Shown: positions 18,036-37,411 of the stretch, piece by piece
Numbering within the stretch: the stretch's first letter is position 1
Layout of the letters: each line of letters opens with the position of its first letter
Source of the DNA: Robiginitomaculum sp.
Lineage (GTDB): Bacteria; Pseudomonadota; Alphaproteobacteria; Caulobacterales; Maricaulaceae
NCBI GenBank assembly: GCA_021776515.1
Contig: JAJFFS010000006.1
Coordinates: 39,084-103,083, forward strand
Length of the DNA stretch: 64,000 nucleotides
Reading direction: 5' to 3'
Program-made: the position numbers and the translations under genes
Notes under the pieces: model-generated
Told to the model about the DNA's origin: nothing
Seen by the model: only the letters and a program-made list of their open reading frames with translations
Databases searched by the model: none

Positions 18036-19286
18036 TCAGAAATGCGCACCCACAGTGAACCATATTTTCTGTGTATCGGTTGCAAAGCCTTTGGCATTAT
18101 AATCGGCAAATTTCAGAGCAACTGAGTAATGCTTGTTGATTTTCTTGGCGACGAGAAGGTCAATTTCCGTGCCATAATTGCCGCCGGTTGCCGCCGAGAA
18201 GTCATGATAGATGGCTGCAAATTTCAGGCCTTTCAGGGGACCGTCCGCCTGTACCTTATAAGCAAGGCTGCCGTAGAAATCTTCCAGTCCACCACCCGGG
18301 GTACCCAGAAATTTATCAGCCCAGCCATTAAACTTGTGCGAGGTGGCCAATGGGGTTTGAAACGCCGCAGTGCCGCCATTATCCGAGCCAAGTTTCTCAA
18401 AGCCGACTTTACCGGTCAGGCCATTGGCGCTGAGGCCAGCGGACAGGTGGACATAGTCCGCGCTATAATCGGTTGCATTGCTGGCGTGGTCAGTCTGGTT
18501 TGCGTATTCGGCCTCATAGAGGAACGTCATATTGCCATCAGCTACTTTATGCTTGCCATCAAAGCGCACACCAAAGGTTTTGCTGGACAAGCCAAACACG
18601 GGGGCATCATTCAGATCAATGATCAGGCCATAGGCGGTGATATTGCCAATGGGCAAGCCAGTATATTTGGCATCCACAACAAAGGTATTCGTGTCCAGAT
18701 CACCAAACGGGTGATCTGAGCCAAAAACCCGGTTCACGTTCCATATATAGGCAGTCGTAATCGTCATGTCCGGAATGGATGAATTGATCATCCCTACCAT
18801 GTCCCAGGTCTGATCATTCTGGCGCCAGCCAACCGTGCCGACAAAGCGTTGATTGCCGATATTAACCGCCGTACGACCTGCCAGCAAAGTGGTTTTCTCA
18901 AATCCGGTATAGGCGATATAAGCTTGATTAACCTCGGTAATTTCCGGGTCGGCAATCACCGGAAAGCGGGTTTTGCCATTGCCTGAATCGTTAAAGGCTG
19001 TCGCACCAATGTTGGAGACGTTATCAAACTCAAGAACGCCAGAGAAGCCTTTGAACACGCCGGTTTCATACTTCAGTTTAGTGCGTAAAGTGGAGGCAAA
19101 AGCATCCTTGGCAAAGCCGTCCTGATCGACGTTTTCCGCGCGATAACGAAAATCCACCGTGACCTTGCCGCCGGTGATGGCATCAGCCAGAGTTTCAGCC
19201 TCTTCGGCAAGTGTGGGAGTGGCGGCCGCAATCAGTGCGAACGACGCAATGCTGGCTAAAAGGCCAGACTTCGTAGGGGTGCGCAT
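18036..19286 (-). CDS. outer-membrane beta-barrel porin, uncharacterised family
   Basis: 416 aa. Signal peptide ending TLAEEA, alternating amphipathic strands rich in Y/G/D/N, and a C-terminal aromatic residue (TVGAHF). It lies directly downstream of narI. Confidence 0.7.
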   Translation of the reverse strand: MRTPTKSGLLASIASFALIAAATPTLAEEAETLADAITGGKVTVDFRYRAENVDQDGFAKDAFASTLRTKLKYETGVFKGFSGVLEFDNVSNIGATAFNDSGNGKTRFPVIADPEITEVNQAYIAYTGFEKTTLLAGRTAVNIGNQRFVGTVGWRQNDQTWDMVGMINSSIPDMTITTAYIWNVNRVFGSDHPFGDLDTNTFVVDAKYTGLPIGNITAYGLIIDLNDAPVFGLSSKTFGVRFDGKHKVADGNMTFLYEAEYANQTDHASNATDYSADYVHLSAGLSANGLTGKVGFEKLGSDNGGTAAFQTPLATSHKFNGWADKFLGTPGGGLEDFYGSLAYKVQADGPLKGLKFAAIYHDFSAATGGNYGTEIDLLVAKKINKHYSVALKFADYNAKGFATDTQKIWFTVGAHF

Positions 19287-19350: not shown

Positions 19351-19364
19351 TTGACCTGGGTCAA
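19351..19364. promoter_or_regulatory. FNR/Crp-type box TTGACCTGGGTCAA upstream of the porin
   Basis: Perfect TTGAC-N4-GTCAA palindrome 65-78 nt upstream of the porin ATG. It shares the left half-site TTGACCT with two of the nar-locus boxes (27942 and 29602); the 29777 box reads TTGAACC. Confidence 0.6.
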
Positions 19365-19486: not shown

Positions 19487-20170
19487 TCACCCCCGTTTGC
19501 GCACAATTTGATAACCGGAACGCATGAGGTATTTAAACGGTGCGCTGACGATATGAACAAGACGGGTGAACGGAAACAGCAGGAATATGGTCAAGCCCAG
19601 CACGATATGCGCCTTAAAGACCAGCGCTTCTTCGGCCATAAATTCGGCGGCGCCGCCCCTGAAGGTCACAATGTGCTGCGCCCATTCGGCCAGTTTAATC
19701 ATGGAGGAACCATCCAGATGCTTGGCGCTTTGCGGTATGGTCATGAGCCCTAATACAAGCTGTGCAAAGAGGATCAGCAATATCGCCATATCCATAAATT
19801 TGGTGGTGGCCCGCACCCGGTCCTGCGTTGTCCGTCGCCAGATAAGGATCAGCATACCAACCAGACAAATGGTACCAAAAATACCGCCCGCTGCCATCGC
19901 CAAAATTTGTTTTTGCCCGGCTGTGACAAATGGCTCATAAACCCAATGCGGGGTCAAAAGACCAACCAGATGCCCCATAAACAAAAGCAAGATACCCACG
20001 TGAAACAAATTGCTGCCCAGCCGTAAACCTTTGGAATGTAACAACTGACTGCTGTCAGCCTTCCATGAATAGGGGTTTTGATCATAGCGCAAAACAGAGC
20101 CGACAACCATCGTCATAATGGCAATATAGGGGTAAATGCCAAACAGGAATGTGTTCATATATTCGGCCAT
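19487..20170 (-). CDS. narI: respiratory nitrate reductase gamma subunit
   Basis: 227 aa with five TM helices and conserved haem-ligand His context. Last gene of the narGHJI order. Its start overlaps the narJ stop (TAATG). Confidence 0.93.
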   Translation of the reverse strand: MAEYMNTFLFGIYPYIAIMTMVVGSVLRYDQNPYSWKADSSQLLHSKGLRLGSNLFHVGILLLFMGHLVGLLTPHWVYEPFVTAGQKQILAMAAGGIFGTICLVGMLILIWRRTTQDRVRATTKFMDMAILLILFAQLVLGLMTIPQSAKHLDGSSMIKLAEWAQHIVTFRGGAAEFMAEEALVFKAHIVLGLTIFLLFPFTRLVHIVSAPFKYLMRSGYQIVRKRG

Positions 20171-20835
20171 TACAAGCCTCCTGCAATTGGGGTTTCATCT
20201 GGCGCGCAAGTGCCGCAATCCGGTGCGCCGGTAAAGGCTTCGGGCTCTTTCCATTGCTCATCCAGCTCGTCCAAAGTTTTGATGTCTGGCAGAGCGGCAT
20301 CGGCGGCTTTGGCAATCTCGGCCTTGCTTAGCTTGGCACCTGAAAGCGCAACGATAGCCGCCATCACCGAAGCATAACCGGATTTGCCGCGTTTCAGTTT
20401 TTCACCAATGGTGGCGATAACCGGCGCGGCCTGGGCCAACGTCTCCAAACCTTCCTCTGGTTCGCAAATGGAAACAAATTCCAGAAACAGCGGCAGATAA
20501 TCGGGCAGCTCGCCCGTACCAATTTTCAAGCCTTTTTCCTGATACTTGTCGGCCAGCTCGATCATAGCCTGCCCGCGAAAGCGTGATTCTCCATGCACAT
20601 GTTCAAACAGGTGCAGACAATGCGCACGCCCCCGGTCAAACAGTTCCACATAGGTTTCCTGCGCCTCCATCAGGTCCACATCGGCCAACTCGTCCATAAA
20701 CCCGGTCAGGTTTTTGAACACCTTGCCTTTAACAAGACCTTCTTCGATTAGCGCCTCTTTTAGCTCATCCATATGACTTAGCCATTCGGCTTGCGGATAG
20801 GCCAGTAGGTGCGACAGCACACGTAAACTTCTCAT
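20170..20835 (-). CDS. narJ: nitrate reductase molybdenum cofactor assembly chaperone
   Basis: 221 aa, located between narH and narI. LLAYPQAEW...ETYVELFDRGRAHCLHLFEHVHGESRFRGQAM is typical NarJ. Confidence 0.9.
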   Translation of the reverse strand: MRSLRVLSHLLAYPQAEWLSHMDELKEALIEEGLVKGKVFKNLTGFMDELADVDLMEAQETYVELFDRGRAHCLHLFEHVHGESRFRGQAMIELADKYQEKGLKIGTGELPDYLPLFLEFVSICEPEEGLETLAQAAPVIATIGEKLKRGKSGYASVMAAIVALSGAKLSKAEIAKAADAALPDIKTLDELDEQWKEPEAFTGAPDCGTCAPDETPIAGGL

Positions 20836-22400
20836 GACGATCCCCCTACAGGTTTGCGGGGCGTGCCGCTAAGGGTATTGTTATGGGTCTGACCACCAAA
20901 CAAATTGGTGCTTTGTTTGGCGCCGGTATTGCAGCCGTTGTCAAAGGAAAATCCGCACTCGGAACGTGTCGAAAACGCAATTTCCTGATCGAACGGCCCG
21001 TCGCCAGCGTATTCACGATGGTTGGTCGGGATAACATAACGATCCTCATAATTGGCAATCGCCATGAGCTGGTACATGTCGTTCATGTCATCCTCGGACA
21101 TGCCAACCTGTTCCAGCACTGCCGGATCTTCGACGCCATCAACGGTTTTGCCACGCATATAAAGACGCATCGCCATCATCCGCTCCAGGGCATTGATCAC
21201 CGGCTCTTCGTCTCCGGCGGTGAGCAAATTGGCCAGGTATTTCGTTGGTATGCGTAAACTACGCACATCAGGCAACATGCCATTTTGTTCCAGCAAGCCC
21301 GATTCCGCAGCCGATTGAACCGGCGAGAGGGGCGGCACATACCAGACCATAGGCAAAGTGCGGTATTCCGGGTGCAGGGGAAAGGCAATCTGCCAGTCCA
21401 TTGCCATTTTATAGACAGGCGAGTTTTGCGCACCATCTATCCAGCTTTGCGGCACCCCGTCGGCCAGCGCACGTTTGATGACCTCCGGATCGTGTGGATC
21501 AAGGAACAGATCGCACTGGCTTTGATAGAGGTCTTTCTCATCAGGTGCCGAAGCGGCTTCCTCGATCTTGTCTGAATCGTATAAAAGCACGCCCAGATAG
21601 CGAATACGCCCAACGCAGGTTTCCGAACAAACGGTTGGCTCGCCCGCCTCGATCCGGGGATAACAGAACGTACATTTTTCTGATTTTCCAGACTGCCAGT
21701 TGAAATAAATTTTCTTGTACGGGCAACCGGAAACACACATGCGCCAGCCCCGGCACTTGTCCTGATCAATCAGAACTATGCCATCTTCCTCGCGCTTGTA
21801 GATCGCACCGGAGGGGCAGGACGCAACGCAGGACGGGTTCAGGCAATGCTCACAAAGACGCGGCAAATACATCATAAAGGTGTTTTCAAATTCACCGTAA
21901 ATTTCTTTTTCCATCTGTTTGAAATTGTAATCTTTTGAGCGTTTTTCAAACTCACCGCCCAGGATTTCTTCCCAGTTCACACCCCAATCGGGTTTTTCCT
22001 TGAACTTGCCGGTAATCGCCGATTTCATCCGCGCCGTTGGTACGGTTTGGCTCTCTTTAGCGGTTTTCAGATGATCGTACTCATAGGTAAACGGCTCGTA
22101 ATAATCGTCAATCAACGGCAGATCAGGGTTGGCAAACAGGTTTGACAACACGCCAATTTTACCACCAATTTTGGGCTTTAGCTTGCCAGCTTTGGTCAGC
22201 TCCCAGCCACCTTTCCACTCTGACTGGTCTTCCCAGTTTCTAGGATAGCCAACGCCGGGTTTGGTTTCCACATTGTTGAACCAGGCATATTCAACGCCGC
22301 CTCTGCTGGTCCAGACGTTTTTGCAGGTCATGGAACAGGTGTGACAGCCAATACATTTATCCAGATTGAGGACCATGCCGATTTGCGCACGAATAGTCAT
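20832..22400 (-). CDS. narH: respiratory nitrate reductase beta subunit
   Basis: 522 aa. Ferredoxin-type cysteine groups CIGCHTCSMTCK, CEHCLNPSCVASCPSGA and CRGWRMCVSGCPYKK. Confidence 0.97.
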   Translation of the reverse strand: MTIRAQIGMVLNLDKCIGCHTCSMTCKNVWTSRGGVEYAWFNNVETKPGVGYPRNWEDQSEWKGGWELTKAGKLKPKIGGKIGVLSNLFANPDLPLIDDYYEPFTYEYDHLKTAKESQTVPTARMKSAITGKFKEKPDWGVNWEEILGGEFEKRSKDYNFKQMEKEIYGEFENTFMMYLPRLCEHCLNPSCVASCPSGAIYKREEDGIVLIDQDKCRGWRMCVSGCPYKKIYFNWQSGKSEKCTFCYPRIEAGEPTVCSETCVGRIRYLGVLLYDSDKIEEAASAPDEKDLYQSQCDLFLDPHDPEVIKRALADGVPQSWIDGAQNSPVYKMAMDWQIAFPLHPEYRTLPMVWYVPPLSPVQSAAESGLLEQNGMLPDVRSLRIPTKYLANLLTAGDEEPVINALERMMAMRLYMRGKTVDGVEDPAVLEQVGMSEDDMNDMYQLMAIANYEDRYVIPTNHREYAGDGPFDQEIAFSTRSECGFSFDNGCNTGAKQSTNLFGGQTHNNTLSGTPRKPVGGSS

Positions 22401-25400
22401 TGGGCTGCCTCCATGTTGTTCGATTGGCCTTCAACATAGGGCTCTTCCATCCAGTCCACCGTGTTGGTTTTACGCAAAATGACAAACTCATCACGGTTGG
22501 ACCCAACGGTGCCATAATAATTAAAGCCCCATGATAATTGCGCGTAACCGCCAATCATGTGTGTGGGTTTCACCACCGCTTTGGTGACCGAGTTGTGAAT
22601 ACCGCCGCGCTTGCCTGTAATGCGGCTGCCGGGGGTATTCATAGTTTTTTCCTGCGCGTGATACATCATGCACATGCCTTCTGGCACTCGCTGACTAACC
22701 ACGGCGCGGGCGGTAATGGCCCCGTTGACGTTGTAAAGCTCAATCCAGTCATTATCAGCCACATCAACCTTGCGCGCGTCAGTTTCCGAAAGCCAGACAA
22801 CCGGCCCACCACGGTTCATGGTCAGCAGTAAAAGATTGTCTGAATAGGTCGAATGAATGCCCCATTTCTGGTGCGGAGTTATCCAGTTCAGTGTAATCTG
22901 CTTCACATCTCCGCCGCGTTCCTTCACCGAATTGGTGATGGTTTTGGTGGAAATTGGTGGCTTGTAAACACACAGACTCTCGCCAAAATCGCGCATCCAT
23001 TCATGATCCTGATAGAACTGCTGGCGTCCGGTTAGCGTGCGCCACGGGATCAGCTCATGCACATTGGTATAACAGGCGTTATAGCTGACATGTTCGTCCT
23101 CAAGGCCAGACCAGGTGGGCGAAGAAATGATCTTGCGCGGTTGCGACTGAACATCCCGAAAGCGGATTTTTTCGTCCTCTTTGGGGCGTGCCAGATGGGT
23201 ATGATCCCGCCCGGTGGTTTTGGACAGATCCGCCCACGCCTTGACCGCAACTTGCCCATTGGTTTCAGGGGCCAGCGACAAGATAACTTCTGTGGCATCA
23301 ATGTCGGTTTCAATACGCGGTTGGCCTTTGCTGACCCCCTCTTCGCGCACCACTTTGTTCAATTTACCCAGCAACTCCACTTCGGCCTCGGTATTCCAGG
23401 AGACACCTTTGCCACCATTGCCAAGCTTGGCCAGAAGCGGCCCAACAGAGGTAAACTTCTTGTAAAGGTTAGGGTAATCCCGTTCTACCTCGACAAGATT
23501 AGGCATGGATTTACCCGGAACCGGATCGCAATCACCATTTTTCCAGTCCTTGACGCCCAGCGCCTGACCCAGCTCGCCGGGGGTGTCGTGCAGGATAGGC
23601 ACCGTAACCAAATCCTTCTCCACGCCCAAATGCCCCTTACAAACTTCTGAGAATTTTTTGGCCAGGCCTTTGAAAATATCCCAATCCGAGCGGCTTTCCC
23701 ATGCGGGATCAACGGCCCGGCTAAGCGGGTGAATGAACGGGTGCATATCCGAGGTGTTCAGATCGTTTTTCTCGTACCAGGTGGCAGTTGGCAGGACGAT
23801 GTCTGAATAAACTGCCGTGGTGGACATACGAAAATCAAGCGTCACCACCAGGTCCAGTTTACCCTCGGGAGCGTCGGCATGCCATTTCACTTCGGATGGC
23901 TTTGCTGAACCCGTTTCGCCCAGATCCTCATTCATCATGCCGTTTTGTGCACCCAGCATATGGCGCAGAATATATTCATGCCCCTTGCCGGACGAACCCA
24001 GAATGTTAGAGCGCCAGACAAACAGATTACGCGGAAAATTATCTGCGCGGTCAGGGTCCTCGGCTGCAAATTGCAGATCGCCGGATTTAAGACTGTCCAC
24101 CACATAATCCTTGGTAGATTTGCCGCTCTTTTCAGCTTTGGCAGATAGCCTCAGCGGGTTTTCATCCAGTTGCGGTGCAGAAGGCAGCCAGCCCATGCGT
24201 TCGGAACGCACATTGCAGTCGATCAACGAATGGTCTTTCCATTTATCCGCTGAGGCCAGAGGCGAGAGAATTTCATCCACGCCCAGTTTCTCATAACGCC
24301 ATTGATTGGAGTGGTTATAGAAAAACGAGGTGGAATTCATTTGCCGTGGCGGGCGGCTCCAGTCCAGCCCAAAGGCCAAAGGCAACCAGCCGGTTTGCGG
24401 ACGCAGTTTTTCCTGACCCACATAGTGGGCCCAGCCACCGCCTGATTTACCAATACAGCCACACATCATCAGAAGATTCATAATCCCCCGATAGGTCATG
24501 TCCATATGATACCAATGGTTGATGGCCGCGCCCAATATCACCATGGAACGCCCACGGGTTTTGTCGGCATTTTCGGCAAATTCACGGGCGACCTGAATGA
24601 TCTTGTCAGCGGAAACACCAGTGATTTTTTCGGCCCATGCTGGCGTATAAGGGACGTTGTCATCAAAGCCCTTGGCCACATTTTCGCCGCCCAGACCACG
24701 GTCTATGGCATAGTTCGCCGCCATCAGGTCATAAACGGTTGCAACATAAGCAGTTTTTTTGCCTTTAAGGGTGACCTTGCGCACGGGAAGTTTGCGCACC
24801 TGTATACTGTCATGGTCGGTGTGGGCAAAAATTTTGCTCTCGTGTTCCTGATTGCCAAAGTAAGGGAACGCCACGTCCAGCACATCATCGGGTTTATCTA
24901 TATTACTCAAAGACGGCCATATATCCTCGCCCGAGACATTATCCTTGGCCTCCAGATTCCATTTGCCCTTCTCGCCCCAACGCGAACCAATAGTACCGTT
25001 AGGAACGCGGTGACTTTGCGAGCCTTCATCAAAAACAACAGATTTCCATTCAGAATTATTTTTAACCTTCAGTCCGCCGGTAAAATCAGAAGCACGCAAG
25101 TTACGGGTGGGAACATAATGGTCGCCCTGTTTTTCCAGCAAAACCTGCATCGGCATATCAGAATAATTGCGTACATAGTCGGTGAAGTATTCCGACTTGC
25201 CGCCAAGGTGATATTCCTTGAACACCACATGCCCCATGGCCATGGCCATAGCCGCATCGGTACCCTGACGCGGGTTTAGCCAAATGTCGGTCAGTTTGGC
25301 AACTTCGGAATAATCCGGCGTTACCGAAACCGTCTTGGCACCCTTATAGCGCACCTCGGTAAAGAAGTGTGCGTCCGGTGTGCGCGTTTGCGGCACGTTG

Positions 25401-26164
25401 GAGCCCCAGGCGATGATATAGGATGAATTGTACCAATCGGCACTTTCAGGCACATCAGTTTGTTCGCCCCAGGTTTGCGGGCTTGATGGTGGCAGATCGC
25501 AATACCAGTCATAAAAGCTAAGGCATACGCCGCCCATGAGCGACAAATAACGCGAGCCAGCCGCATACGAGACCATCGACATGGCCGGGATGGGCGAGAA
25601 ACCAAACACCCGGTCCGGGCCAAATGTTTTGGTGGTGTAGACATTGGCGGCGGCGGTGATCTCGTTCACTTCGTCCCAATCGGCACGAACAAAGCCGCCA
25701 AGGCCGCGCATTTTTTTGTAATCCCTGGATTTTTCAGGATCAGAGACAATGCTGCCCCAGGCCAGAACCGGATCACCGTGTTCCATCTTGGCAGCACGAA
25801 AGGCGTTTAACAGCCGCGAACGAATAAGCGGATATTTCAGCCGGGCCGCAGAATACAGATACCAGGAATAGCTGGCCCCGCGTGAGCAACCGCGTGGCTC
25901 GTGATTGGGCATATCGGGCCGCGTGCGCGGATAATCCGTTTGCTGTGTCTCCCAGGTGACCAGGCCGTTTTTGACGTAGATTTTCCAGCTGCACGAGCCC
26001 GTGCAATTCACCCCGTGAGTGGAGCGCACAATTTTGTCGTGCGCCCAGCGCCCGCGATAGGCTTTTTCCCAGTCTCTGGCCTCGCTTGTGGTAATGCCGT
26101 GGCCGTTTGAAAACTTGCCTTCAACCTTGGAAAAATAAGTTAGTCTGTCGATGAAATTGCTCAT
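22397..26164 (-). CDS. narG: respiratory nitrate reductase alpha subunit
   Basis: 1255 aa. The N-terminus is nearly colinear with E. coli NarG (DKIVRSTHGVNCTGSCSWKIYVKNGLVTWETQQTDYPRTRPDMPNHEPRGC). Confidence 0.98.
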   Translation of the reverse strand: MSNFIDRLTYFSKVEGKFSNGHGITTSEARDWEKAYRGRWAHDKIVRSTHGVNCTGSCSWKIYVKNGLVTWETQQTDYPRTRPDMPNHEPRGCSRGASYSWYLYSAARLKYPLIRSRLLNAFRAAKMEHGDPVLAWGSIVSDPEKSRDYKKMRGLGGFVRADWDEVNEITAAANVYTTKTFGPDRVFGFSPIPAMSMVSYAAGSRYLSLMGGVCLSFYDWYCDLPPSSPQTWGEQTDVPESADWYNSSYIIAWGSNVPQTRTPDAHFFTEVRYKGAKTVSVTPDYSEVAKLTDIWLNPRQGTDAAMAMAMGHVVFKEYHLGGKSEYFTDYVRNYSDMPMQVLLEKQGDHYVPTRNLRASDFTGGLKVKNNSEWKSVVFDEGSQSHRVPNGTIGSRWGEKGKWNLEAKDNVSGEDIWPSLSNIDKPDDVLDVAFPYFGNQEHESKIFAHTDHDSIQVRKLPVRKVTLKGKKTAYVATVYDLMAANYAIDRGLGGENVAKGFDDNVPYTPAWAEKITGVSADKIIQVAREFAENADKTRGRSMVILGAAINHWYHMDMTYRGIMNLLMMCGCIGKSGGGWAHYVGQEKLRPQTGWLPLAFGLDWSRPPRQMNSTSFFYNHSNQWRYEKLGVDEILSPLASADKWKDHSLIDCNVRSERMGWLPSAPQLDENPLRLSAKAEKSGKSTKDYVVDSLKSGDLQFAAEDPDRADNFPRNLFVWRSNILGSSGKGHEYILRHMLGAQNGMMNEDLGETGSAKPSEVKWHADAPEGKLDLVVTLDFRMSTTAVYSDIVLPTATWYEKNDLNTSDMHPFIHPLSRAVDPAWESRSDWDIFKGLAKKFSEVCKGHLGVEKDLVTVPILHDTPGELGQALGVKDWKNGDCDPVPGKSMPNLVEVERDYPNLYKKFTSVGPLLAKLGNGGKGVSWNTEAEVELLGKLNKVVREEGVSKGQPRIETDIDATEVILSLAPETNGQVAVKAWADLSKTTGRDHTHLARPKEDEKIRFRDVQSQPRKIISSPTWSGLEDEHVSYNACYTNVHELIPWRTLTGRQQFYQDHEWMRDFGESLCVYKPPISTKTITNSVKERGGDVKQITLNWITPHQKWGIHSTYSDNLLLLTMNRGGPVVWLSETDARKVDVADNDWIELYNVNGAITARAVVSQRVPEGMCMMYHAQEKTMNTPGSRITGKRGGIHNSVTKAVVKPTHMIGGYAQLSWGFNYYGTVGSNRDEFVILRKTNTVDWMEEPYVEGQSNNMEAAQ

Positions 26165-26242: not shown

Positions 26243-27850
26243 TTATGGGTTTTTCACATAAGCGTCTTTGCGCAAGTAAAACCACCAATTGATCAATATG
26301 CAAAGCGCATAAAAGGCAGCAAAGCCATAAAGTGCATATTCCGGGGTGGTTAGCTTGATCTGCTCGCCAAACACTTTGGGAATGATGAAGGCACCATAAG
26401 CGGCCACTGCAGAGGTCCAACCCAGAACCGGCCCAGCCTGTTCTTTGTCAAATACCATGGCAATGGTACGAAAGGTCGAGCCATTGCCAATGCCGGTTGC
26501 GGCAAACAGGATCAGGAACAATACCAGGAAGGGCATGAAGTATTCCTGCGGCGTGGCCGAAGCATAGGCCGCTTTCATATAATAGGCGACGCCCAGCGCC
26601 GCAGCGACCATAACAACAGAAATGATTTGGGTGACTTTGGCACCGCCCATCTTGTCGGCAATTATGCCGCCAACAGGACGAATCAACGCACCGATAAAAG
26701 GCCCGGTCCAGGCAAACATCAGGGCACTGGGACCATCAGGGTTTGCCAGATTGTGGGTCATCACCCCGTCAACCATCACATGTTGAAAGCCAAAGATAAC
26801 CTTGATTGCCAGGCCAAATGCGGCGGCATAACCAATGAAGGAACCAAAGGTCATGGTGTAGATAACCGTCATCGCCCAGGTGTGTTTGTTGTTGAAAATT
26901 TTGTACTGGTGATCCAGACTTTTCTTGATGGGTCCGGGGATCAGTTTTAGCGCAAAAACCGTGGCTGCAATAACAAGCGGCAACACAATCCATTTGCTGA
27001 TCATCAAGCCCGAGCCACCCACATCAGCAGGCAACATCAACCATAGGCCAGCCGTTGCCGTAGCAAAGCCGATCAGCAACATGCCGGAAATTTTGGCAAA
27101 GGACCCAAGGGGTGAACCAATATTAGGCGACACATGGTCTGCGGTAATATTGTTCATGCCAAACCAGGCGGCAATGACGATAGGCACCAAAATCACAACC
27201 CAGATGAAACCGGCATTATGAAGGTAGGTATCAGTCCCCGCCGGGATTTTGCCGATCAGCGTGCCAGACGTGGCTTCCAGAACCATGGGTGCGCCGCCGA
27301 ACATGGCAGCGGTCATCACCAATGGCACCAGAATTTGCATGGTGGTCACACCAAAATTACCCAGCCCGGCATTCATGCCCAGAGAGTAACCAGCCATTTT
27401 TTTGGGGAAGAAAAAGCTGATATTGGACATGGAGGAAGCAAAGTTGCCACCGCCAAAACCGGACAGAAGCGCCATGAGCTGGAACTGCCATAGCGGCGTG
27501 TCAGGGTTTTGCAACAGCATCCCCGTTCCCGCAGCAGGTACGATCAGAAGGGCCGTCGTGAAAAAGATGGTGTTGCGCCCACCGGCCAGCCGGATGAAGA
27601 ACGTTGAGGGTATCCGCAATGTCGCCCCGGTCAGACCAGCAATGGCCGCCAGCGTGAACAATTCGGACTGCGCAAACGGAAATCCCAGATTGATCATTTG
27701 CACCGTGATGATGCCCCAATAGAGCCACACCGCAAACCCGCATAAAAGCGCCGGAATGGAAATCCACAAGTTTCGATTGGCAATAGCCTTGCCGGTTGAC
27801 GCCCATTCGGTTTCGTCTTCCGGGTTCCATTGTTGAAGATCTTTTGCCAT
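26243..27850 (-). CDS. narK: MFS nitrate/nitrite transporter, NarK2-like
   Basis: The track ORF starts at 27916. I prefer MAKDLQQWNPEDE at 27850. It has 12 or more TM helices and lies immediately upstream of narG, the NarK2 position in narK1K2GHJI loci. Confidence 0.88.
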   Translation of the reverse strand: MAKDLQQWNPEDETEWASTGKAIANRNLWISIPALLCGFAVWLYWGIITVQMINLGFPFAQSELFTLAAIAGLTGATLRIPSTFFIRLAGGRNTIFFTTALLIVPAAGTGMLLQNPDTPLWQFQLMALLSGFGGGNFASSMSNISFFFPKKMAGYSLGMNAGLGNFGVTTMQILVPLVMTAAMFGGAPMVLEATSGTLIGKIPAGTDTYLHNAGFIWVVILVPIVIAAWFGMNNITADHVSPNIGSPLGSFAKISGMLLIGFATATAGLWLMLPADVGGSGLMISKWIVLPLVIAATVFALKLIPGPIKKSLDHQYKIFNNKHTWAMTVIYTMTFGSFIGYAAAFGLAIKVIFGFQHVMVDGVMTHNLANPDGPSALMFAWTGPFIGALIRPVGGIIADKMGGAKVTQIISVVMVAAALGVAYYMKAAYASATPQEYFMPFLVLFLILFAATGIGNGSTFRTIAMVFDKEQAGPVLGWTSAVAAYGAFIIPKVFGEQIKLTTPEYALYGFAAFYALCILINWWFYLRKDAYVKNP

Positions 27851-27941
27851 GTTCTGGCTCCTTCTGTTGAAAACAATCAGACGCTTTTCCCAAGTGTCCA
27901 AACCATCAGGCACCACGTGCCAAAATTTACCATCCCTGTGA

Positions 27942-27955
27942 TTGACCTAGATCAA
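27942..27955. promoter_or_regulatory. FNR/Crp-type box TTGACCTAGATCAA upstream of narK2-narGHJI
   Basis: One mismatch to TTGAT-N4-ATCAA. It lies 92-105 nt upstream of the narK2 ATG, just after the narK1 terminator. Confidence 0.65.
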
Positions 27956-28003: not shown

Positions 28004-28033
28004 AAAAAAACGGGGGCTTGCCCCCCCGTTTTT
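28004..28033. terminator. strong bidirectional intrinsic terminator between narK1 and narK2
   Basis: aaaaaaa-cggggg-cttg-ccccccg-ttttt. A GC stem is flanked by an A-run and a T-run, starting 21 nt after the narK1 stop. Confidence 0.8.
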
Positions 28034-28053: not shown

Positions 28054-29529
28054 TTAACTGTGTTTGAACTTCACATCAGTCAAATCCACCCCAAGAGCTT
28101 CCAGACGCTTGAGCGCATGGGCTTCTCGACTGCCAAAGACCTTGACCTTGTCAATCTCGTCACTAGCCACCCCTAATACTTCAAGGTGTTTACGAGCCGC
28201 TTCTTTTCTGTGGCGGGTAAAGCCACTGTCAAAGCGCTCTTCAGCTTCGATTTCATCGGCCTTGCTAAAGCGGACAAACAGCGCCAGGAAGGATGCGCAG
28301 GTCACCAAAGCGCCGAGAATGAGGTAGGATGTATGCCAATCCATCTCGCCCTTGAACAAGAAACCCGCCGCAACTGCGCCAACATTACCGCCCGCGCCAA
28401 CGACACCGGCAACAGCACCCAGGGATTTTTTGGAAATAAACGGAACGACCGAAAATGTTGCCCCTTCAGACATCTGGGTAAACAGCGAGAAGAACAGCAA
28501 TGTTGGTATGGCCAGAAACAACACATGCATTTGCGAGAACAGCATCAAAGCCAAACCCTCAATGAACAGCACGATGAACAACCATGTTGCCCGGCCTTTC
28601 AAACCCCACAGCGACGCAAAGTTGTCACCGAATATGCCGCCCAGTGTGCGGGCAAAGATATTCATCAAACCAAAGCTTGCCGCGACCATGCCGGCAGTCA
28701 CCAGGTTGAGACCAAAATAGTCAAAGAAATATAGAGCCAGCGTACCAAAGATAATCAGTTCAATGCCAAAACAGGCGGCATAAATGAAGAATAACATCCA
28801 GACCCGGTAATCTTTTAACGCATGAAAGAAATTCCCGACTGATTTGTTTCTTTCCGGCATTTTGCCCTGGGCGCGCAATTCCTTATAGCTGCCATCGGGT
28901 GCATCCTGAGTGAATACGTAATAGACAACGCCCGTCACCAGAATCACTGCACCGGCAACAACCATTGAGGCACGCCAGCCAAAGGCTTCGTTCATGCCAA
29001 ACCCGACCACAAAGATGGAAAAGATCATCGGCATGGCAAACTGGGTGACACCGCCGCCCAGATTACCCCAACCGGCACTGGTCGCATTAGCCTGACCAAC
29101 AACATTCGGCGCGAACATATTGGTTGTATGGTATTGGGTAATGACAAAGCTCGCGCCGATCACACCAATCAAAATTCTGAAAATCAGAAAGCTTGTATAA
29201 TCCTGAGCAAGCCCAATACCCATAACCGGCAAAGAGGCCAGGACCAACAACCAGGTATAGGTCAGCCTTGGCCCATAATGGTCACAGAGCCAGCCGATCA
29301 GTATTCGGGCAAACACCGTAGCCGAGACGGCCCCGATAATGGTCCAACCGATTTGTTCTTTGGACAGCCCCAATTCCTCTCGGACAACCGCCATTAGCGG
29401 CGCAATACCAAACCAGGCAAAGAAACACAGGAAAAACGCAAACCACGTTACGTGGAACGTTCTGATTTGTATTTTATCGACGCGTAAAAAATCGCCCCAA
29501 AGACTGGTGGCTTTATTTTGTAATTCCAT
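28054..29529 (-). CDS. narK: MFS nitrate/nitrite transporter, NarK1/NNP-like, with C-terminal extension
   Basis: The track start is 29544. The ATG at 29529 sits behind GGAGGAC, which is itself the sequence read as MED in the longer ORF. The MFS core has 12 TM helices, followed by a roughly 75-aa hydrophilic tail. Confidence 0.88.
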   Translation of the reverse strand: MELQNKATSLWGDFLRVDKIQIRTFHVTWFAFFLCFFAWFGIAPLMAVVREELGLSKEQIGWTIIGAVSATVFARILIGWLCDHYGPRLTYTWLLVLASLPVMGIGLAQDYTSFLIFRILIGVIGASFVITQYHTTNMFAPNVVGQANATSAGWGNLGGGVTQFAMPMIFSIFVVGFGMNEAFGWRASMVVAGAVILVTGVVYYVFTQDAPDGSYKELRAQGKMPERNKSVGNFFHALKDYRVWMLFFIYAACFGIELIIFGTLALYFFDYFGLNLVTAGMVAASFGLMNIFARTLGGIFGDNFASLWGLKGRATWLFIVLFIEGLALMLFSQMHVLFLAIPTLLFFSLFTQMSEGATFSVVPFISKKSLGAVAGVVGAGGNVGAVAAGFLFKGEMDWHTSYLILGALVTCASFLALFVRFSKADEIEAEERFDSGFTRHRKEAARKHLEVLGVASDEIDKVKVFGSREAHALKRLEALGVDLTDVKFKHS

Positions 29530-29601
29530 TGTTACGTCCTCCAAAAACCAACTCGACTCCTCGAATTATCGGCCTTGTACTCATTATTGGGTAACAGTGG
29601 T

Positions 29602-29615
29602 TTGACCTACATCAA
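29602..29615. promoter_or_regulatory. FNR/Crp-type box TTGACCTACATCAA upstream of narK1
   Basis: 73-86 nt upstream of the narK1 ATG, in the divergent narK1/regulator intergenic region. Confidence 0.65.
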
Positions 29616-29776: not shown

Positions 29777-29790
29777 TTGAACCTAATCAA
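29777..29790. promoter_or_regulatory. FNR/Crp-type box TTGAACCTAATCAA upstream of the NIT-Crp/Fnr regulator
   Basis: 46-59 nt upstream of the regulator ATG at 29836. Suggests autoregulation. Confidence 0.5.
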
Positions 29791-29835: not shown

Positions 29836-31416
29836 ATGGACAGCAAGGTCACACTTGGATCAGTCACCACACCTGCCCTGTTGAAACTGGGTGAACTGGC
29901 CCATCAGTTACAGTCGGAGCGCGGTTGCACGGCGCTTTATGTAGATAGTGAAGGCGAGCTGTTTTCAGACGAATTACGCGATCAAAGAAAAAAAACAGCC
30001 ATAGCCACCAATGTACTGGCTAGCGCCTGTAATGACCCTGAACTTAAAAACAGTATCGACAATTCGACCTTTCAAAAAGTACTTGAAATTTTGGACGCTG
30101 TCCAAAACCTGGAACCCCATCGCAAACAGGTCGATAAATTTGAGCTCTCTTTTTCCAAAGCCGTCAACTATTACACCTATAAGGCCTTAAGCCCGCTTCT
30201 GGATGTGCAGATTGAAATCGCCTTGCAGGTTGAAGGCATGGTTCCGGCAACGGCAACGGCCTACGCCAATCTGTTGCAATGGAAAGAGCGGGTTGGCCGG
30301 GAGCGCGCCTGGGGTACTCATGGATTTTTTAAAGAAGCATTCAAGAACCGTGAGTTTTCAGAACGCATCCTGACATTGCTGGACGAACAAAGTTCATACA
30401 AGCGCGCATTTTTATCACTGGCAGCGGAGCCCTATCAAAATCTGGTTGAAAAACTTTTCACCGGCTATGTGATGCAGTTTGTCGAAGACCTGCACGCCAT
30501 GCTTGAAAATGAGACTGAAACCGAAGAGCTGGAGGCAATTTCACCGGTGACCTGGTTCCAGTTGCTGACTGGAAAAATGGAACGCCTGAAACTTGTTGAG
30601 ACAGAACTTGTCAATGATTTGACGGGTTTTTCCAAATCTCAAACACGCCCGGAAGCCATAACGAAGCCCGTTGCCGGAAATATAGAGCGGCACATGCCGC
30701 TGATACGCACTCTGCCTATATTTTCAAAACTGGAAGAAGCCGAAGTGTTGGCCTTGTTGTCACATGCCAATGTACAGGAATACGAAAAGGGAAAATTGCT
30801 ATTCCTGCAATCAGAGCCGCTTTCACGTTTCTATTTGCTGCTTTCCGGCTGGGTAAAATTGTTCAAAGGCTCGGACGCGGGCGATGAGGCCGTCCTGCAA
30901 ATGCTCTCGGCTGGTGACAGCGTTATGGAAGCAGCCATATTGTTGAATATTCCCTCTGCTGCCAGCGCACAAGTGGTCGAGAAAGCTACCCTGCTTTCCA
31001 TTCCGGCCCCGGTGGTGCGGCAGGTCTTGCAGGATAACAACGCCTTTGCCCTGAATATGCTGGGTAATCTTTCCATGCGCTCGCAACACCTTATTCAGCA
31101 AATTGAGCATTCCCGCCTTAGAAATGCCAGTGAGCGCGTCGGCTGGTATCTACTAAAACTGGGCATGAAAGAAGCCGACGGCAAACCAAACGCCATCCGT
31201 CTGCCCTATGATAAATCGCTGATTGCTTCCTATCTGGATATGACGCCGGAAACTTTTTCACGAACGTTGAAAAAATTCCGCACCCAGGGGTTTCGTATTG
31301 AAAACAACACCATCACCCAACCGCACCCCAAAGCCCTGTGCCAATATTGCGATGAAACCCTGGCCAGTGCCTGCAAACATAAAGATGAGCCTGACTGCCC
31401 GGGCACGTACTTGTAG
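29836..31416 (+). CDS. one-component regulator: NIT (nitrate/nitrite-sensing) domain fused to a Crp/Fnr cNMP-like domain, HTH and C-terminal Cys cluster
   Basis: 526 aa. NIT hallmarks are LAHQLQSERGCTALYV and LLQWKERVGRERAWG. The Crp effector fold is LPIFSKLEEAEVLALLSH...FYLLLSGWVKLF. The HTH has an FNR-like recognition helix MTPETFSRTLKKF. The tail is C502-x2-C505-x7-C513-x7-C521. Confidence 0.8.
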   Translation: MDSKVTLGSVTTPALLKLGELAHQLQSERGCTALYVDSEGELFSDELRDQRKKTAIATNVLASACNDPELKNSIDNSTFQKVLEILDAVQNLEPHRKQVDKFELSFSKAVNYYTYKALSPLLDVQIEIALQVEGMVPATATAYANLLQWKERVGRERAWGTHGFFKEAFKNREFSERILTLLDEQSSYKRAFLSLAAEPYQNLVEKLFTGYVMQFVEDLHAMLENETETEELEAISPVTWFQLLTGKMERLKLVETELVNDLTGFSKSQTRPEAITKPVAGNIERHMPLIRTLPIFSKLEEAEVLALLSHANVQEYEKGKLLFLQSEPLSRFYLLLSGWVKLFKGSDAGDEAVLQMLSAGDSVMEAAILLNIPSAASAQVVEKATLLSIPAPVVRQVLQDNNAFALNMLGNLSMRSQHLIQQIEHSRLRNASERVGWYLLKLGMKEADGKPNAIRLPYDKSLIASYLDMTPETFSRTLKKFRTQGFRIENNTITQPHPKALCQYCDETLASACKHKDEPDCPGTYL

Positions 31417-31580: not shown

Positions 31581-32348
31581 TTAATGCTTCCCCTTGACCC
31601 AATTGCTGTCCCGCCCAAAAGCGCTATTCAATTCAACTACTTCCTTATCTTTTGCCCACTTATATGCTAATTTTTCACAAAGCACATATAGACTTGCGTT
31701 GTTGTTGCCTGTTGTTGGCCTCACCCCCCTGATGTAATCAGCGGCATATATAAGTTGTCGAACAAATGTTGTTCGCCAATAATCTTTATATATTTTTTCA
31801 TGGTACGCACCTTTTGCGATACCTAAGGCTATCAACTCATTCCAATTTAGCATTCGCATAATTATGGTGCGTACTTCTTGGTACTCTTTTAAAGATAGAA
31901 CCCTATTTGGCTTTTTATCACATTGGCATTCACACTTTTGATTACTCTGACATAACTCTTCACATTGGCATGAGCATTTGCATGGCCGAGTATCTAAGGC
32001 AGATTTTTGAACACCTGTTCTATCAAGGTTGTACATGCTTGGTTTTGTTGAAAACTCACCTAATCTTCCTTCATAACAAACCTGATAACGATTGAATAAA
32101 GTTAATGTTTTCAGCAAGTCAGAATCCGTTTCCATTTTAACCAAAATATCCATGGTTTCACGATTGATCGCGACATGTCGCGTTCGCATCCACAAGCCCA
32201 AAGCGGCAAACATTGTTACAAATAAAATAATATTTTGGGTGCCAAGTCCTGCCAAATTTGACCACTCGATTGGTGTTATCGCTACCAATCCACCGATAAC
32301 AGCTCCAATAAGTACACAAGCTACGGCGCTTATACTTTTATCTACCAT
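31581..32348 (-). CDS. membrane-anchored hypothetical protein (DUF4760-like C-terminal region) with a CxC-rich insert
   Basis: Two N-terminal TM helices. Insert PCKCSCQCEELCQSNQKCECQCDKK has 9 Cys in 24 aa. The C-terminal MLNWNELIALGIAKGAYHEKIYKDYWRTTFVRQ resembles my recollection of DUF4760. The start is either 32366 (MWGIFF) or 32348 (MVDK). The gene is about 33% G+C in sampled 60-nt lines. Confidence 0.55.
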   Translation of the reverse strand: MVDKSISAVACVLIGAVIGGLVAITPIEWSNLAGLGTQNIILFVTMFAALGLWMRTRHVAINRETMDILVKMETDSDLLKTLTLFNRYQVCYEGRLGEFSTKPSMYNLDRTGVQKSALDTRPCKCSCQCEELCQSNQKCECQCDKKPNRVLSLKEYQEVRTIIMRMLNWNELIALGIAKGAYHEKIYKDYWRTTFVRQLIYAADYIRGVRPTTGNNNASLYVLCEKLAYKWAKDKEVVELNSAFGRDSNWVKGKH

Positions 32349-32731
32349 AAAAAAAATGCCCCACAAGAAACATGGGGCAATAATATCATATATAAACCAT
32401 GAGGTGAAGTAAAATTCTAAGGCAACCCATAACCTTCATGTCTAATCGGTAATCCATAACCCTCACGCATATCTTACTCCTAAAGCTGTTTTTCTCTCAC
32501 TATTAGATAAGCACAATCTCATTAACAGCGTTCTAACAAGGTGCTCACAATTCATTCACGTGCGTATAAGTCCAGTTAACTCATCTTGCAACAGCATAAT
32601 CCAAAAAGTTGTATTATTTCACACCACCTTTAAACTTGCTAATATGAGGTATGTAACGATTCCCGACGCCTTAAACATAGGCACGAATTGAGGAAAAATC
32701 AAGCATTATAAGTATCCATTGTAGACTATAA

Positions 32732-33130
32732 CTACCCCCCGACCCGGAACCGGCTGCCGGTTTTCTCTAACGTTCTGCCAATCACATAGCCACCAAGGCC
32801 CATAGTCAGTAAATTCCACATACCATCAGGTATTTCCAGCACCACGGCAACGCCGCCAAAGGCCTGTACGTAAGGGGCGATGAGGTAATTATTGGCGATG
32901 ATGGCGGTGAAGGTCAGCATGGTCAGCGGTCGCCAGTTGCGTTGCATCCAGCTTGTCCCCTGCGCCTCGGCAACCAGCACATCGCGCGCCGCCTGGGTCA
33001 ACACGGTTTCCTGATCGATCAGCTTGGCCTTTATTTCCTGTTTTAGCTGGCGGCGCAGGTCTGCATCCGGCACGGCTTTATCGATGATGCCCGCAACCGG
33101 GCCGATAATGGCGCTAAGAAGTCCCATCAT
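32732..33130 (-). CDS. 3-TM holin of the gene-transfer-agent release type
   Basis: 132 aa. The N-terminal amphipathic segment GIIDKAVPDADLRRQLKQEI is followed by WMQRNWRPL and TM helices, matching the family named holin of 3TMs for gene-transfer release. It overlaps the upstream peptidase gene by 4 nt. Confidence 0.7.
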   Translation of the reverse strand: MMGLLSAIIGPVAGIIDKAVPDADLRRQLKQEIKAKLIDQETVLTQAARDVLVAEAQGTSWMQRNWRPLTMLTFTAIIANNYLIAPYVQAFGGVAVVLEIPDGMWNLLTMGLGGYVIGRTLEKTGSRFRVGG

Positions 33131-33573
33131 ATATTCTCCTCATCCTGAGCTTGTCGAAGGATTGGATAACTCTTCCAAGGCAGTTGAAAGTGTGGGCCAT
33201 CCTTGAAACTTTGCCAGTCCCCGCCCCATTCCAGCGGCACGCCCTGTTCCGCCGCAGCCATCTGCATGGCGTGGGCGATTTTCTCATACAAAGACCAGTC
33301 CCAGCGCACACCATTGCCAACCCAGGCACCCAAATCCACCGCATGGCCCGTGAGATGGCGAGAATTTAACGTGCGCGTGGCACCGGCCTGATAAAGCAGG
33401 TTTTGACGCTCTGCCGTGCGCCGCCCCTCCAGCACAGTGAAATCCACCGGGCTAAGCTGCAAGGCACGACGAACCACACAGGCCAGTTCCACATGCACTC
33501 CGGCCAGACGCTCGTTCGAGCGCGCCGAAAGCCTGAATACGTCAACGGCAACTGATTTTGATGGCTCGTCCAT
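33127..33573 (-). CDS. M15-family peptidoglycan peptidase (endolysin-like)
   Basis: 148 aa. Zn-ligand pattern RTAERQ...SRHLTGHAVDL...DGPHFQL is typical of the M15 (VanY / L-alanyl-D-glutamate peptidase) phage endolysins. Confidence 0.75.
   Translation of the reverse strand: MDEPSKSVAVDVFRLSARSNERLAGVHVELACVVRRALQLSPVDFTVLEGRRTAERQNLLYQAGATRTLNSRHLTGHAVDLGAWVGNGVRWDWSLYEKIAHAMQMAAAEQGVPLEWGGDWQSFKDGPHFQLPWKSYPILRQAQDEENI
33139..33160 (-). repeat. inverted copy of the ccttcgacaagctcagg(a/g)tgag repeat
   Basis: ctcatcctgagcttgtcgaagg is the reverse complement of the 19428-19449 motif, with 21/22 identity. It encodes the last residues (LRQAQDE) of the peptidase. Confidence 0.6.
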
Positions 33574-33683
33574 AGCTTACACCCTTTGCAAAAGTTCATG
33601 TTAGATCGTGGGCAAAGGCGTCGGATAAGTTCGCTATGTCCTTACGACTTGACGGCGGGGCGGGGCTGGTTTCCTTTGCACCC

Positions 33684-35251
33684 ATGAGCGATGAAACACC
33701 GAATCTAGCGACAGGTTTTGCCATTCCGGAACTTGCTGACTGGCGCGCTTTGGCAGATACGGCGCTAAGGGGCGCCAGCTTTGAAGACACGCTGGTGCGC
33801 CGCACAGCGAGCGGCATCGCCCGTGGCCCTTTGCGCACCAAAGTGGATGATCCAAATAGTGCGGGCAACCCCGGTGAGTTCCCGTTTGTGCGGGGTATAA
33901 ATGCGCAGTTGGACACAGCGCGACCCTGGCATATCACTCAAAGCTACAGGATGGCTGACCCGGCAGAGGCTAACATTGCCATACTGGACGATCTGGCCGG
34001 AGGCACCAGTGCGCTGCTGCTCTATCTTGACCCTGCCGGGCAAAAGGGCATTGCGGTACGCACACTGGATGACCTGCGGCGTGTGCTTCGCGGCGTTGAT
34101 CTCTCCATTGTGCCGGTGCTGTTGCAGGCAAGGCCACTAAATGCCGCCTATGCCGCCATGCTGGTTTCCTGTTTTCAATATTTTGACATGCGAACAGTAG
34201 AGGGCGGGTTGGGTTTTTCGCCGGTGGGGCAAACCATCAAACACGGCATGGATATGGCGTTGTTACCGGAAAAATTACACCGCACCGCCAGCTTTGCCCG
34301 TTGGGCCGCCGATAACGCCCCCGGTGTTGAAACGGCGATAATTACCTCCTCGCTTATCCATGAAGCCGGTGGTTCAGAAGCGCTGGAGCTGGCTTTCGCC
34401 GCTGCTGGTGGATTTGCCTATTTCAAGGTTTTTGTCGAGGCGGGCCTCAGCCCCAATGAAGCCGCAAACGCCATTATGTTCTCGCTATCGCTGGACGCCG
34501 ATGTGCCGCTGGGCATTGCCAAGCTGCGGGCGGGGCGGCGTATATGGGCACGCATCACCAGCGCTTGCGGCGCAGATGGTGCGGCCTGCGCCATGCGTAT
34601 TCATGTGGGTACATCCAAGCGAATGATGAGCCGACTTGCCCCCTACACCAACATTTTGCGCACCAGCACGGCCGCCTTTGCTGCCATGGCGGGCGGGGCG
34701 CAATATATCACTGTTGAGCCCTATGACATGGCTCTTGGTACCGATCAGCCAAAGGCCCGGCGCCTTGCCCGCAATGTGCAAATTATCCTGCAAGAGGAAG
34801 TCCGCGGCCGGGCCGTGATGGACCCTGCCGGGGGGGCTTATGCCATTGAGAAACTGACCGATGATCTGGCCCAGGCCGCCTGGGCTATGTTCCAGCAAAT
34901 TGAGCGGCGCGGCGGCCTCATCAAGGCGGCTTCATCCGGCTGGCTGGGAGAGACAGTAACGGCGCAGCGCAATGCCCGGCTGGATGCTATCAAAACTGGC
35001 AAGCATAATCTGGTTGGCGTGACAAAATATGTGCAAGAAGGGGAGCGCCTGCCCCTTTCTGTCGATCCATCACCCCCCACACCGATGCCAAAGCCAACGC
35101 CTTTTGCGACATCGTTTTCAGTAGAGAACTTTCTGGCCGCCGCCAAAGCCGGAGCACGACTGGTGCCGCCTGTGCAAGGCAATCCGCGACCTGATTTTGC
35201 CCCGACCAATTTTTGCACGCCTTTTGAAAACGTGGCCAAGGGAGAAACCCC

Positions 35252-35255: not shown

Positions 35256-37407
<2,152 letters not shown>

Positions 37408-37411
<4 letters not shown>

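Follow-up and report, generated by a model that had tools for sequence, protein, structure and literature searches.

A candidate one-component NIT-Crp/Fnr regulator of respiratory nitrate reduction in Robiginitomaculum and its conserved C-terminal four-cysteine tail

Introduction

Which protein brings the nitrate and oxygen signals to the respiratory nitrate reductase (nar) genes of a Robiginitomaculum sp.? The stretch analyzed here (64,000 nucleotides of contig JAJFFS010000006.1, assembly GCA_021776515.1, positions 39,084 to 103,083; hereafter the window) carries narK1-narK2-narGHJI. Divergent from these genes is one whose product joins a nitrate/nitrite-sensing NIT domain to a Crp/Fnr regulator with four cysteines (Cys) at its end. 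On balance, this protein is probably a one-component Crp/Fnr-superfamily transcription factor through which the neighboring nitrate-respiration genes are controlled. Nitrate-responsive control of nar by the regulator is well supported. An initial annotation, made from the sequence alone, suggested in addition that the Cys cluster lets the same polypeptide sense oxygen (O2) through an iron-sulfur (Fe-S) center. The evidence for each part of this proposal is considered below.

Domain architecture of the regulator

The open reading frame at 29836..31416 (+) encodes a protein of 526 residues. Translation starts at the first ATG in frame, and alignments with homologues begin at residue 1. A Pfam scan gave three matches, each above its curated gathering cut-off, and no match to an ANTAR output domain; the output is Crp/Fnr. 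An AlphaFold2 (AF2) model built on 35 diverse homologues has a mean predicted local distance difference test (pLDDT) score of 82, while the inter-domain arrangement has a predicted template modeling (pTM) score of 0.59. The order along the chain is NIT, flexible linker, Crp/Fnr beta-roll, dimerization helix, winged helix-turn-helix (HTH) and a 25-residue Cys tail. The features of the gene are:

29836..31416, + strand: NIT-Crp/Fnr regulator gene (open reading frame, translation, Pfam NIT, cNMP_binding and HTH_Crp_2, at least 285 homologues of the same architecture)
29893..30621, + strand: NIT domain, residues 20-262, predicted nitrate/nitrite-binding module (Pfam PF08376, AF2 model, NasR alignment)
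30628..30669, + strand: flexible linker from the NIT to the Crp module, residues 265-278 (pLDDT below 50 in the AF2 model)
30775..31038, + strand: Crp/Fnr beta-roll, residues 314-401 (Pfam PF00027 cNMP_binding, E 5e-17)
31132..31347, + strand: HTH_Crp_2 DNA-binding domain, residues 433-504 (Pfam PF13545, E 2e-11)
31339..31398, + strand: four-Cys tail C502-x2-C505(D506)-x7-C513-x7-C521, candidate metal or Fe-S site (homologue conservation)

The Pfam matches bear out the three-part architecture of the initial annotation, which had placed the beta-roll at about residues 290-410 and the HTH at about 440-500. Every string that it quoted is found in the translation, including both NIT motifs, LAHQLQSERGCTALYV at residues 21-36 and LLQWKERVGRERAWG at residues 146-160, and the four terminal Cys at the claimed spacing.

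Membership of the regulator in a named equivalog was rejected. The NCBIfam models for FtrB, Fnr, CRP, NtcA and FixK all score far below their cut-offs. The Fnr model gives 39.3 bits against a cut-off of 228, and the FtrB equivalogs NF006901 and NF050815 give 134.4 against 211 and 109.6 against 300, respectively.

NIT domain

The NIT assignment of the N-terminal half is significant. Pfam PF08376 matches residues 20-262 with an E value of 3.6e-36 and 126.2 bits (cut-off 24.9), covering model positions 1-238 of 239. Residues 8-260 are entirely helical in the AF2 model with pLDDT mostly 85-98, which agrees with a predicted all-alpha NIT fold like that of NasR. In a PDB search the NIT half matches only NasR (4akk) by sequence, with an E value of 3.5e-8.

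The alignment with 4akk places R29 on NasR R50 and E156/R157 on NasR E175/R176. We take R50 to be a pocket position, which fits the chain-numbering offset of 27 derived from E175/R176. R29, E156 and R157 are invariant across the 35 diverse homologues, and NasR E175 and R176 are predicted nitrate-pocket residues (PMC7496416). Judging from these matches, a response to nitrate or nitrite is likely to be mediated by the NIT domain.

Crp/Fnr module and DNA recognition

The C-terminal half has a canonical Crp/Fnr fold in the AF2 model, with a long dimerization helix at residues 402-428. The recognition helix ETFSR occupies residues 472-476 (nucleotides 31249-31263) and has the FNR-like E--SR pattern that had been read from the sequence. 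The 35-sequence alignment shows no variation at E472, T473, S475 or R476. An alignment with CRP, FNR and NarR, in which the E. coli CRP and FNR sequences were entered by hand, sets ETFSR against ETISR of FNR and ESLSR of NarR. The Cys of the FNR-type cluster (C20, C23, C29, C122) have no aligned Cys in the regulator. Cyclic-nucleotide sensing was considered and rejected; the residues R82/S83 that contact cyclic AMP in CRP are not conserved.

Foldseek matches in the PDB include Ruegeria 3h3z/3fx3, GlxR, M. tuberculosis CRP, A. fischeri FNR and DNR, with target-normalized TM scores of 0.7-0.86 to Crp/FNR structures (CRP, GlxR, FNR). The nearest PDB entries by sequence are 3fx3/3h3z and DNR 3dkw. 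A Ruegeria homologue adjoins nor genes.

C-terminal four-Cys tail

The tail follows the HTH, which ends at about residue 504, and runs from C502 to C521. Pfam places no separate domain on it; the HTH_Crp_2 match reaches residue 504. In 114 full-length homologues C505 and C513 are present in all, and C502 and C521 in 113 each, so that the terminal Cys are conserved among orthologues. D506 and L501 are invariant in the 35-sequence alignment. Conservation does not extend to the remaining two Cys, C31 and C65. The NIT-fused family has the tail motif L-C-x-[FY]-C-D-x6-C-x7-C. The tail seems somewhat more likely to be a redox or O2-sensing metal center than to be anything else.

nar locus and conserved synteny

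The genes on the other side of the regulator are:

28054..29544, - strand: narK1, major facilitator superfamily (MFS) nitrate/nitrite transporter, divergent from the regulator; true start probably ATG 29529 (Pfam MFS_1, synteny)
26243..27916, - strand: narK2, MFS transporter; true start probably ATG 27850 (Pfam MFS_1, synteny)
19487..26164, - strand: narGHJI, respiratory nitrate reductase operon (Pfam Nitr_red_alph_N/Molybdopterin, Nitrate_red_del, Nitrate_red_gam)
22397-26164, - strand: narG, part of narGHJI
20832-22400, - strand: narH, assigned by position and 73-94% tblastn conservation
20170-20835, - strand: narJ, part of narGHJI
19487-20170, - strand: narI, part of narGHJI
18036..19286, - strand: Alginate_exp-like outer-membrane beta-barrel (porin-like) gene just downstream of narI (weak Pfam PF13372 match)

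The arrangement was surveyed in 80 species-level loci of the NIT-Crp/Fnr gene. narK is upstream in 71/80, the exceptions being contig ends and one locus, L014. Every locus with enough upstream DNA has a divergent narK(-narK)-narGHJI, again except L014, where the gene (10001-11572, on a complete Robiginitomaculum chromosome) has as its divergent neighbor a MobA-like nucleotidyltransferase resembling molybdenum cofactor guanylyltransferase, and not nar. The divergence from narK1-narK2-narGHJI described for the window is therefore found in all but one adequate locus. No nir or nor genes adjoin the fused genes in the loci examined.

The initial annotation also stated that narX/narL and a classical fnr are missing, and this holds within the 64-kb window. 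No other Crp/Fnr or NIT open reading frame is present there, and Pfam finds no NarX/NarL-type pair among the listed open reading frames of at least 150 residues that do not lie inside a longer one.

Homologues of the porin-like gene occur in eight other loci (L039, L044, L064, L070, L072, L077, L091, L093), beside NIT-Crp/Fnr genes or beside genes for Crp/Fnr proteins that have the same tail and no NIT domain (stand-alone C4 proteins, see below). The porin-like gene is a probable member of the same regulon, and its product may be a nitrate/nitrite-specific porin.

The first transporter next to the regulator is of two types, 65-95% and 24-31% identical to the narK1 of the window, in a comparison of L001-L004, L007, L016-L022 and others. 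Two NarK modules are fused into one protein of 973 residues in L091 (2929-5850). The metagenome-assembled genome NORP30 has two copies of the NIT-Crp/Fnr gene (L012, L027).

Predicted operators

Perfect TTGA-N6-TCAA sites number five in the 64 kb, compared with 1.17 expected, and four of them are within the nar locus. These four, at 19351, 27942, 29602 and 29777, are the boxes that had been noticed earlier, and they are real. They and a hairpin (none assigned to a strand) are:

29602..29615: box TTGACCTACATCAA upstream of narK1, predicted main operator (conserved across loci)
27942..27955: box TTGACCTAGATCAA between narK1 and narK2, upstream of narK2-narGHJI (conserved in 13 loci)
29777..29790: box TTGAACCTAATCAA, 46 bp upstream of the regulator ATG, possible autoregulation (not generally conserved elsewhere)
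19351..19364: box TTGACCTGGGTCAA, about 72 bp upstream of the porin-like gene (box upstream of the homologue in 7/8 other loci)
28006..28033: GC-rich hairpin with T-runs on both strands (terminator-like), after narK1 and before narK2 (sequence)

A perfect box is present in 60/67 intergenic regions between narK and the regulator, compared with 0.55 expected from shuffles. The consensus is TTGA[C/T]-N4-[A/G]TCAA. In close relatives about 65 bp separate the box center from the point where the narK1 alignment begins, and the distance to the regulator is variable. Counted to the start codon, the narK1 box is some 65-80 bp away, a spacing that fits a class-II type activator. A scan of the narK1/regulator intergenic region for sigma-70 promoters gave nothing convincing, as would be expected of activator-dependent promoters.

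The box between narK1 and narK2 is kept at the same place in the 13 loci that have one, all of which carry a narK1 of the window type. Since the terminator-like hairpin follows narK1 and the second box comes directly after it, the sequence suggests that narK1 and narK2-narGHJI may be separate, individually activated transcription units. The positions of the boxes give a predicted regulon that comprises narK1, narK2-narGHJI and the porin-like gene, and perhaps also the regulator gene. On this sequence evidence, it is very likely that the regulator controls nar through the boxes.

Stand-alone Crp/Fnr proteins with the same tail

The Crp half was used in an exhaustive search of 1.84 billion cluster representatives. 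This search returned 161 clusters at E <1e-30, and the top 150 were classified. NIT-fused proteins account for 45/150, of which 42 have the C4 tail. A larger group of 62/150 consists of stand-alone proteins (about 240-270 residues) with the same L-C-x-[FY]-C-D...C...C tail. Another 14/150 are stand-alone proteins with a three-Cys C-x2-C-x(3-10)-C tail, and 29/150 have no Cys tail; neighbor-joining puts the added outgroup, P. denitrificans NarR, among the latter. A profile search with the stand-alone proteins gave 470 more at E <1e-15, and the tail is present in 111/111 of those newly listed. The Cys tail pointed out in the initial annotation is real and conserved. It is not special to the fusion, and instead marks a large Crp/Fnr subfamily that includes NIT-less members.

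The tail of the stand-alone proteins, L-C-x-[FY]-C-D-x6-C-x7-C, is often followed by C-x2-C-P-x-H, which adds a fifth Cys and a His. An FNR-type N-terminal Cys cluster is absent from these proteins, whose first 40-45 residues have at most 1-2 Cys.

Genomic contexts were examined for nine independent stand-alone C4 proteins. Two are divergent from ccoNOQP-ccoGHIS, which encodes a cbb3 oxidase. One directly follows a HemN-like radical-SAM gene and is beside nrdD-nrdG. Four (Alcanivorax, Micavibrio, Emcibacteraceae and one other) are divergent from narK-narG, with moeA near three of them, ubiTUV-like genes near two and nrdD near one. One is divergent from a narK-like MFS gene, with moeA and a porin, and the context of the last is uninformative. 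The cco, hemN/nrdDG and nar settings are classic neighborhoods and targets of oxygen-responsive FNR-type regulators. Since the contexts point to low oxygen and the stand-alone C4 proteins have no other candidate sensor, this is contextual evidence for the tail as a low-oxygen sensor. The stand-alone C4 subfamily (loci L083-L094, with proteins P0201, P0269, P0273, P0316, P0329, P0356, P0361 and P0387) is a candidate for an undescribed class of FNR-like oxygen sensor. Since the tail is shared with NIT-less proteins linked to nar, cco and hemN/nrdDG, the NIT domain is an add-on to an older regulator with ties to anaerobic respiration.

A neighbor-joining tree of the Crp modules, built with the tail excluded and without support values, shows NIT-fused proteins intermingled with stand-alone C4 proteins. 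It puts the fusion inside the C4 subfamily but is too weak to count fusion events.

P0160 (486 residues) has two complete Crp/Fnr modules (beta-roll and HTH) in tandem and Cys-rich N-terminal residues, an unusual covalent 'dimer' architecture. The search matched P0195, P0202 and P0235 (487-526 residues) over two stretches each, and they may resemble P0160.

Distribution of the family

At least 285 clusters (90% identity) contain all three domains, at 40-75% identity to the query, and 151 species-representative genomes encode a relative. The carriers are mostly marine Alphaproteobacteria, including Robiginitomaculum, Henriciella, Kordiimonas, Emcibacter/Paremcibacter, Methyloligella and other Hyphomicrobiales. 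There is one gammaproteobacterial carrier, Exilibacterium. Among the cultured carriers are Kordiimonas lacus (WP_068303888.1), K. marina, K. lipolytica, Pseudokordiimonas caeni and Paremcibacter congregatus (WP_099473566.1).

The database names are all generic, for example 'nitrate- and nitrite sensing domain-containing protein'. No paper on a NIT-Crp/Fnr fusion turned up in full-text searches, and two superfamily surveys do not mention it, in line with the earlier remark that no characterized fusion was known. The architecture is common and widespread, and is held in databases under generic names with no characterization found.

Other genes in the window

Directly downstream of the regulator and convergent with it is a DUF4760 gene (31581-32366, -), which has the Cys-rich insert CKCSCQCEELCQSNQKCECQCDKK inside the domain. 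Further on, a holin gene of the gene-transfer-agent type with three transmembrane segments (PF11351) overlaps a Peptidase_M15_4 gene (32732-33573, -). The two look like a holin/endolysin pair of gene-transfer-agent type, and are isolated, flanked by the nar locus and by the methylmalonyl-CoA mutase genes (33636-37411). The sole two-component gene of the window encodes a hybrid histidine kinase (2641-5205, -; PAS, HisKA, HATPase_c and receiver domains). It adjoins flhB/fliR and recA and is far from nar.

Proposed mechanism and alternative explanations

In the proposed mechanism a dimer of the regulator would bind the boxes and activate narK1, narK2-narGHJI and the porin gene. Nitrate or nitrite would bind the NIT pocket and relieve an inhibitory contact between the NIT and Crp modules, by analogy with NasR, for which autoinhibition is a precedent (PMC7496416). 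The Cys4 tail would be the second input, most probably an Fe-S cluster that is labile to O2 and/or nitric oxide (NO) and needed for the active conformation, as in Bacillus Fnr and HcpR2. DNA binding would then need low oxygen and nitrate together, and the regulator would merge the jobs of NarR and FnrP in Paracoccus, or of NarXL and FNR in E. coli. The protein is tentatively read as a single cytoplasmic AND gate, which combines nitrate/nitrite sensing by NIT with oxygen sensing by a C-terminal Cys4 Fe-S center and replaces NarR or NarXL plus FNR. The same cluster would define a new, widespread class of oxygen sensor in Proteobacteria, evolved independently of the E. coli and Bacillus clusters. 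The chance that this reading is correct in full appears to be somewhat short of even.

Several points weigh against the AND gate. The coupling of NIT to Crp is a guess from the model, in which the low pTM leaves the interface undefined. The tail is modeled as a short helix with moderate confidence (pLDDT 61-74), and its spacing, C-x2-C-x7-C-x7-C, is unlike both E. coli FNR and Bacillus Fnr. Another FNR or a FixK encoded elsewhere in the genome could be the user of the boxes. We also infer each functional property, from ligand and DNA binding to metal content and the sign of regulation.

The metal is the point at which the most serious alternative enters. The regulator could be a nitrate-only sensor, equivalent to NarR with a NIT input, in which Cys4 binds a structural zinc that stabilizes the C-terminus or the dimer, and oxygen control comes through a separate FNR, FnrL or FixK-type protein on shared boxes, as with FnrP and NarR. 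The only PDB resemblances of the tail are to zinc-binding domains, although these are non-significant (Midline-1 B-box, E 0.63; RBBP6 zinc-binding domain, E 9.1), and the fifth Cys of many stand-alone relatives, often joined by the His, results in a zinc-like CxxC...CxxC arrangement. Paracoccus nar requires both FnrP and NarR (PMC8139620), and the search for fnr covered only 64 kb of this genome. However, the fused family has only four invariant Cys and no second CxxC knuckle. In addition, no other sensor is obvious in the NIT-less proteins that share the tail, and yet they are found beside cco, hemN/nrdDG and nar, where an oxygen-responsive regulator is expected. A structural zinc with a nitrate-only sensor is the less likely reading, although a real rival. 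Fe-S-based oxygen sensing by the tail is plausible from the genomic contexts, and sequence alone cannot separate Fe-S from zinc.

If the tail does hold an Fe-S cluster, its ligand could be NO or NO derived from nitrite, as in HcpR2, NsrR or DNR/NnrR, so that nar would be tuned to nitrate supply and to NO build-up or nitrosative stress. The Crp half is closest to the DNR/NnrR-like group (3fx3/3h3z, 3dkw and a Ruegeria homologue beside nor); the Fe-S cluster of HcpR2 is proposed to be damaged by NO (PMC5701242); and nar is the setting of several stand-alone relatives. Other stand-alone members, next to cbb3 oxidase or hemN/nrdDG genes, favor oxygen instead, and the fused genes examined have no adjoining nir or nor, which makes an NO sensor improbable. 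It is more improbable still that the protein represses nar or its own gene when the signal is absent, or that its NIT domain binds something other than nitrate or nitrite. The box 46 bp upstream of the regulator ATG is in a possible repressing position, and to our knowledge very few NIT domains have been directly tested for ligand specificity. In contrast, the spacing from box to narK is conserved at about 65-80 bp, as at promoters activated by FNR or NarR, the nitrate-pocket residues are invariant, and the gene is associated with nitrate transport and reduction genes throughout the 80-locus survey, L014 apart.

Significance

Alphaproteobacteria lack NarXL and rely on NarR, and the present family offers a readable answer to how nitrate is sensed there, a NIT sensor fused to a NarR-like regulator. 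It would be a tractable model for nitrate-dependent control of nar in Robiginitomaculum, Kordiimonas, Emcibacter and other abundant marine lineages. The small, well-defined predicted regulon and the cultured carriers make the system testable. Should Cys4 prove to be an Fe-S oxygen sensor, the Crp/Fnr superfamily would have arrived at oxygen sensing independently three times, and in the fusion a single protein would naturally act as an AND gate for nitrate and anoxia. Possible uses include a compact biosensor part and the prediction of nar expression in metagenomes from oxygen-minimum zones and the subseafloor.

Comparison with known regulators

By sequence and structure, the Crp half is best matched by the DNR/NnrR-like proteins (3dkw; Ruegeria pomeroyi 3fx3/3h3z) and FtrB. 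Unlike the regulator, these proteins are single modules of about 230 residues with no NIT domain and no Cys tail. DNR senses NO through heme.

E. coli FNR has a similar recognition helix (ETISR compared with ETFSR) and a similar TTGAT-N4-ATCAA-type box, and together with NarX-NarL it brings the oxygen and nitrate signals to narK and narG. Its cluster, however, is N-terminal (C20, C23, C29, C122), and the nitrate signal in E. coli comes from a separate membrane kinase rather than from a fused cytoplasmic domain.

The Fnr of Bacillus subtilis and B. cereus carries a C-terminal [4Fe-4S] cluster and regulates nar in response to oxygen (PMC3520743). Like the regulator, it has a Cys-rich extension after the HTH. 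The motif is printed as C-x4-C-x2-C-x3-C for B. cereus; in B. subtilis, with C-x2-C-x4-C, the ligands are three Cys (C227, C230, C235) and Asp141 (PMC3520743). The tail described here, with four invariant Cys, does not fit the Bacillus motif, and Bacillus Fnr, which falls in another clade, lacks a NIT domain. HcpR2 also carries an Fe-S cluster (PMC5701242).

NasR of Klebsiella oxytoca (NIT-ANTAR, PDB 4akk) shares the N-terminal NIT domain with its two motifs and pocket residues. It also shares the one-component logic, in which the sensor is fused directly to a nucleic-acid-binding output. The similarity is low (E 3.5e-8), and the output of NasR is an ANTAR RNA-binding antiterminator for assimilatory nas genes, whereas the regulator has a Crp/Fnr DNA-binding output and is beside respiratory nar genes.

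NarR, which the initial annotation did not mention, is the closest functional analogue and has the same genomic position, since in P. denitrificans this Crp/Fnr protein is encoded divergently from narK-narGHJI. In P. denitrificans and P. pantotrophus it responds to nitrate/nitrite, activates narKGHJI and substitutes for NarXL in Alphaproteobacteria (PMC8139620). It acts at an FNR-type box, is reported to have no Fe-S cluster, and is needed for Paracoccus nar together with the oxygen sensor FnrP (PMC8139620). The regulator is 31% identical to NarR over residues 290-502 and has the same E--SR recognition helix. Unlike the regulator, NarR has only about 230 residues, with no NIT domain and no C-terminal Cys. 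The regulator would work like NarR, at the same locus and box type, but is not a NarR-type protein, as it has an extra NIT module of 280 residues and the Cys4 tail.

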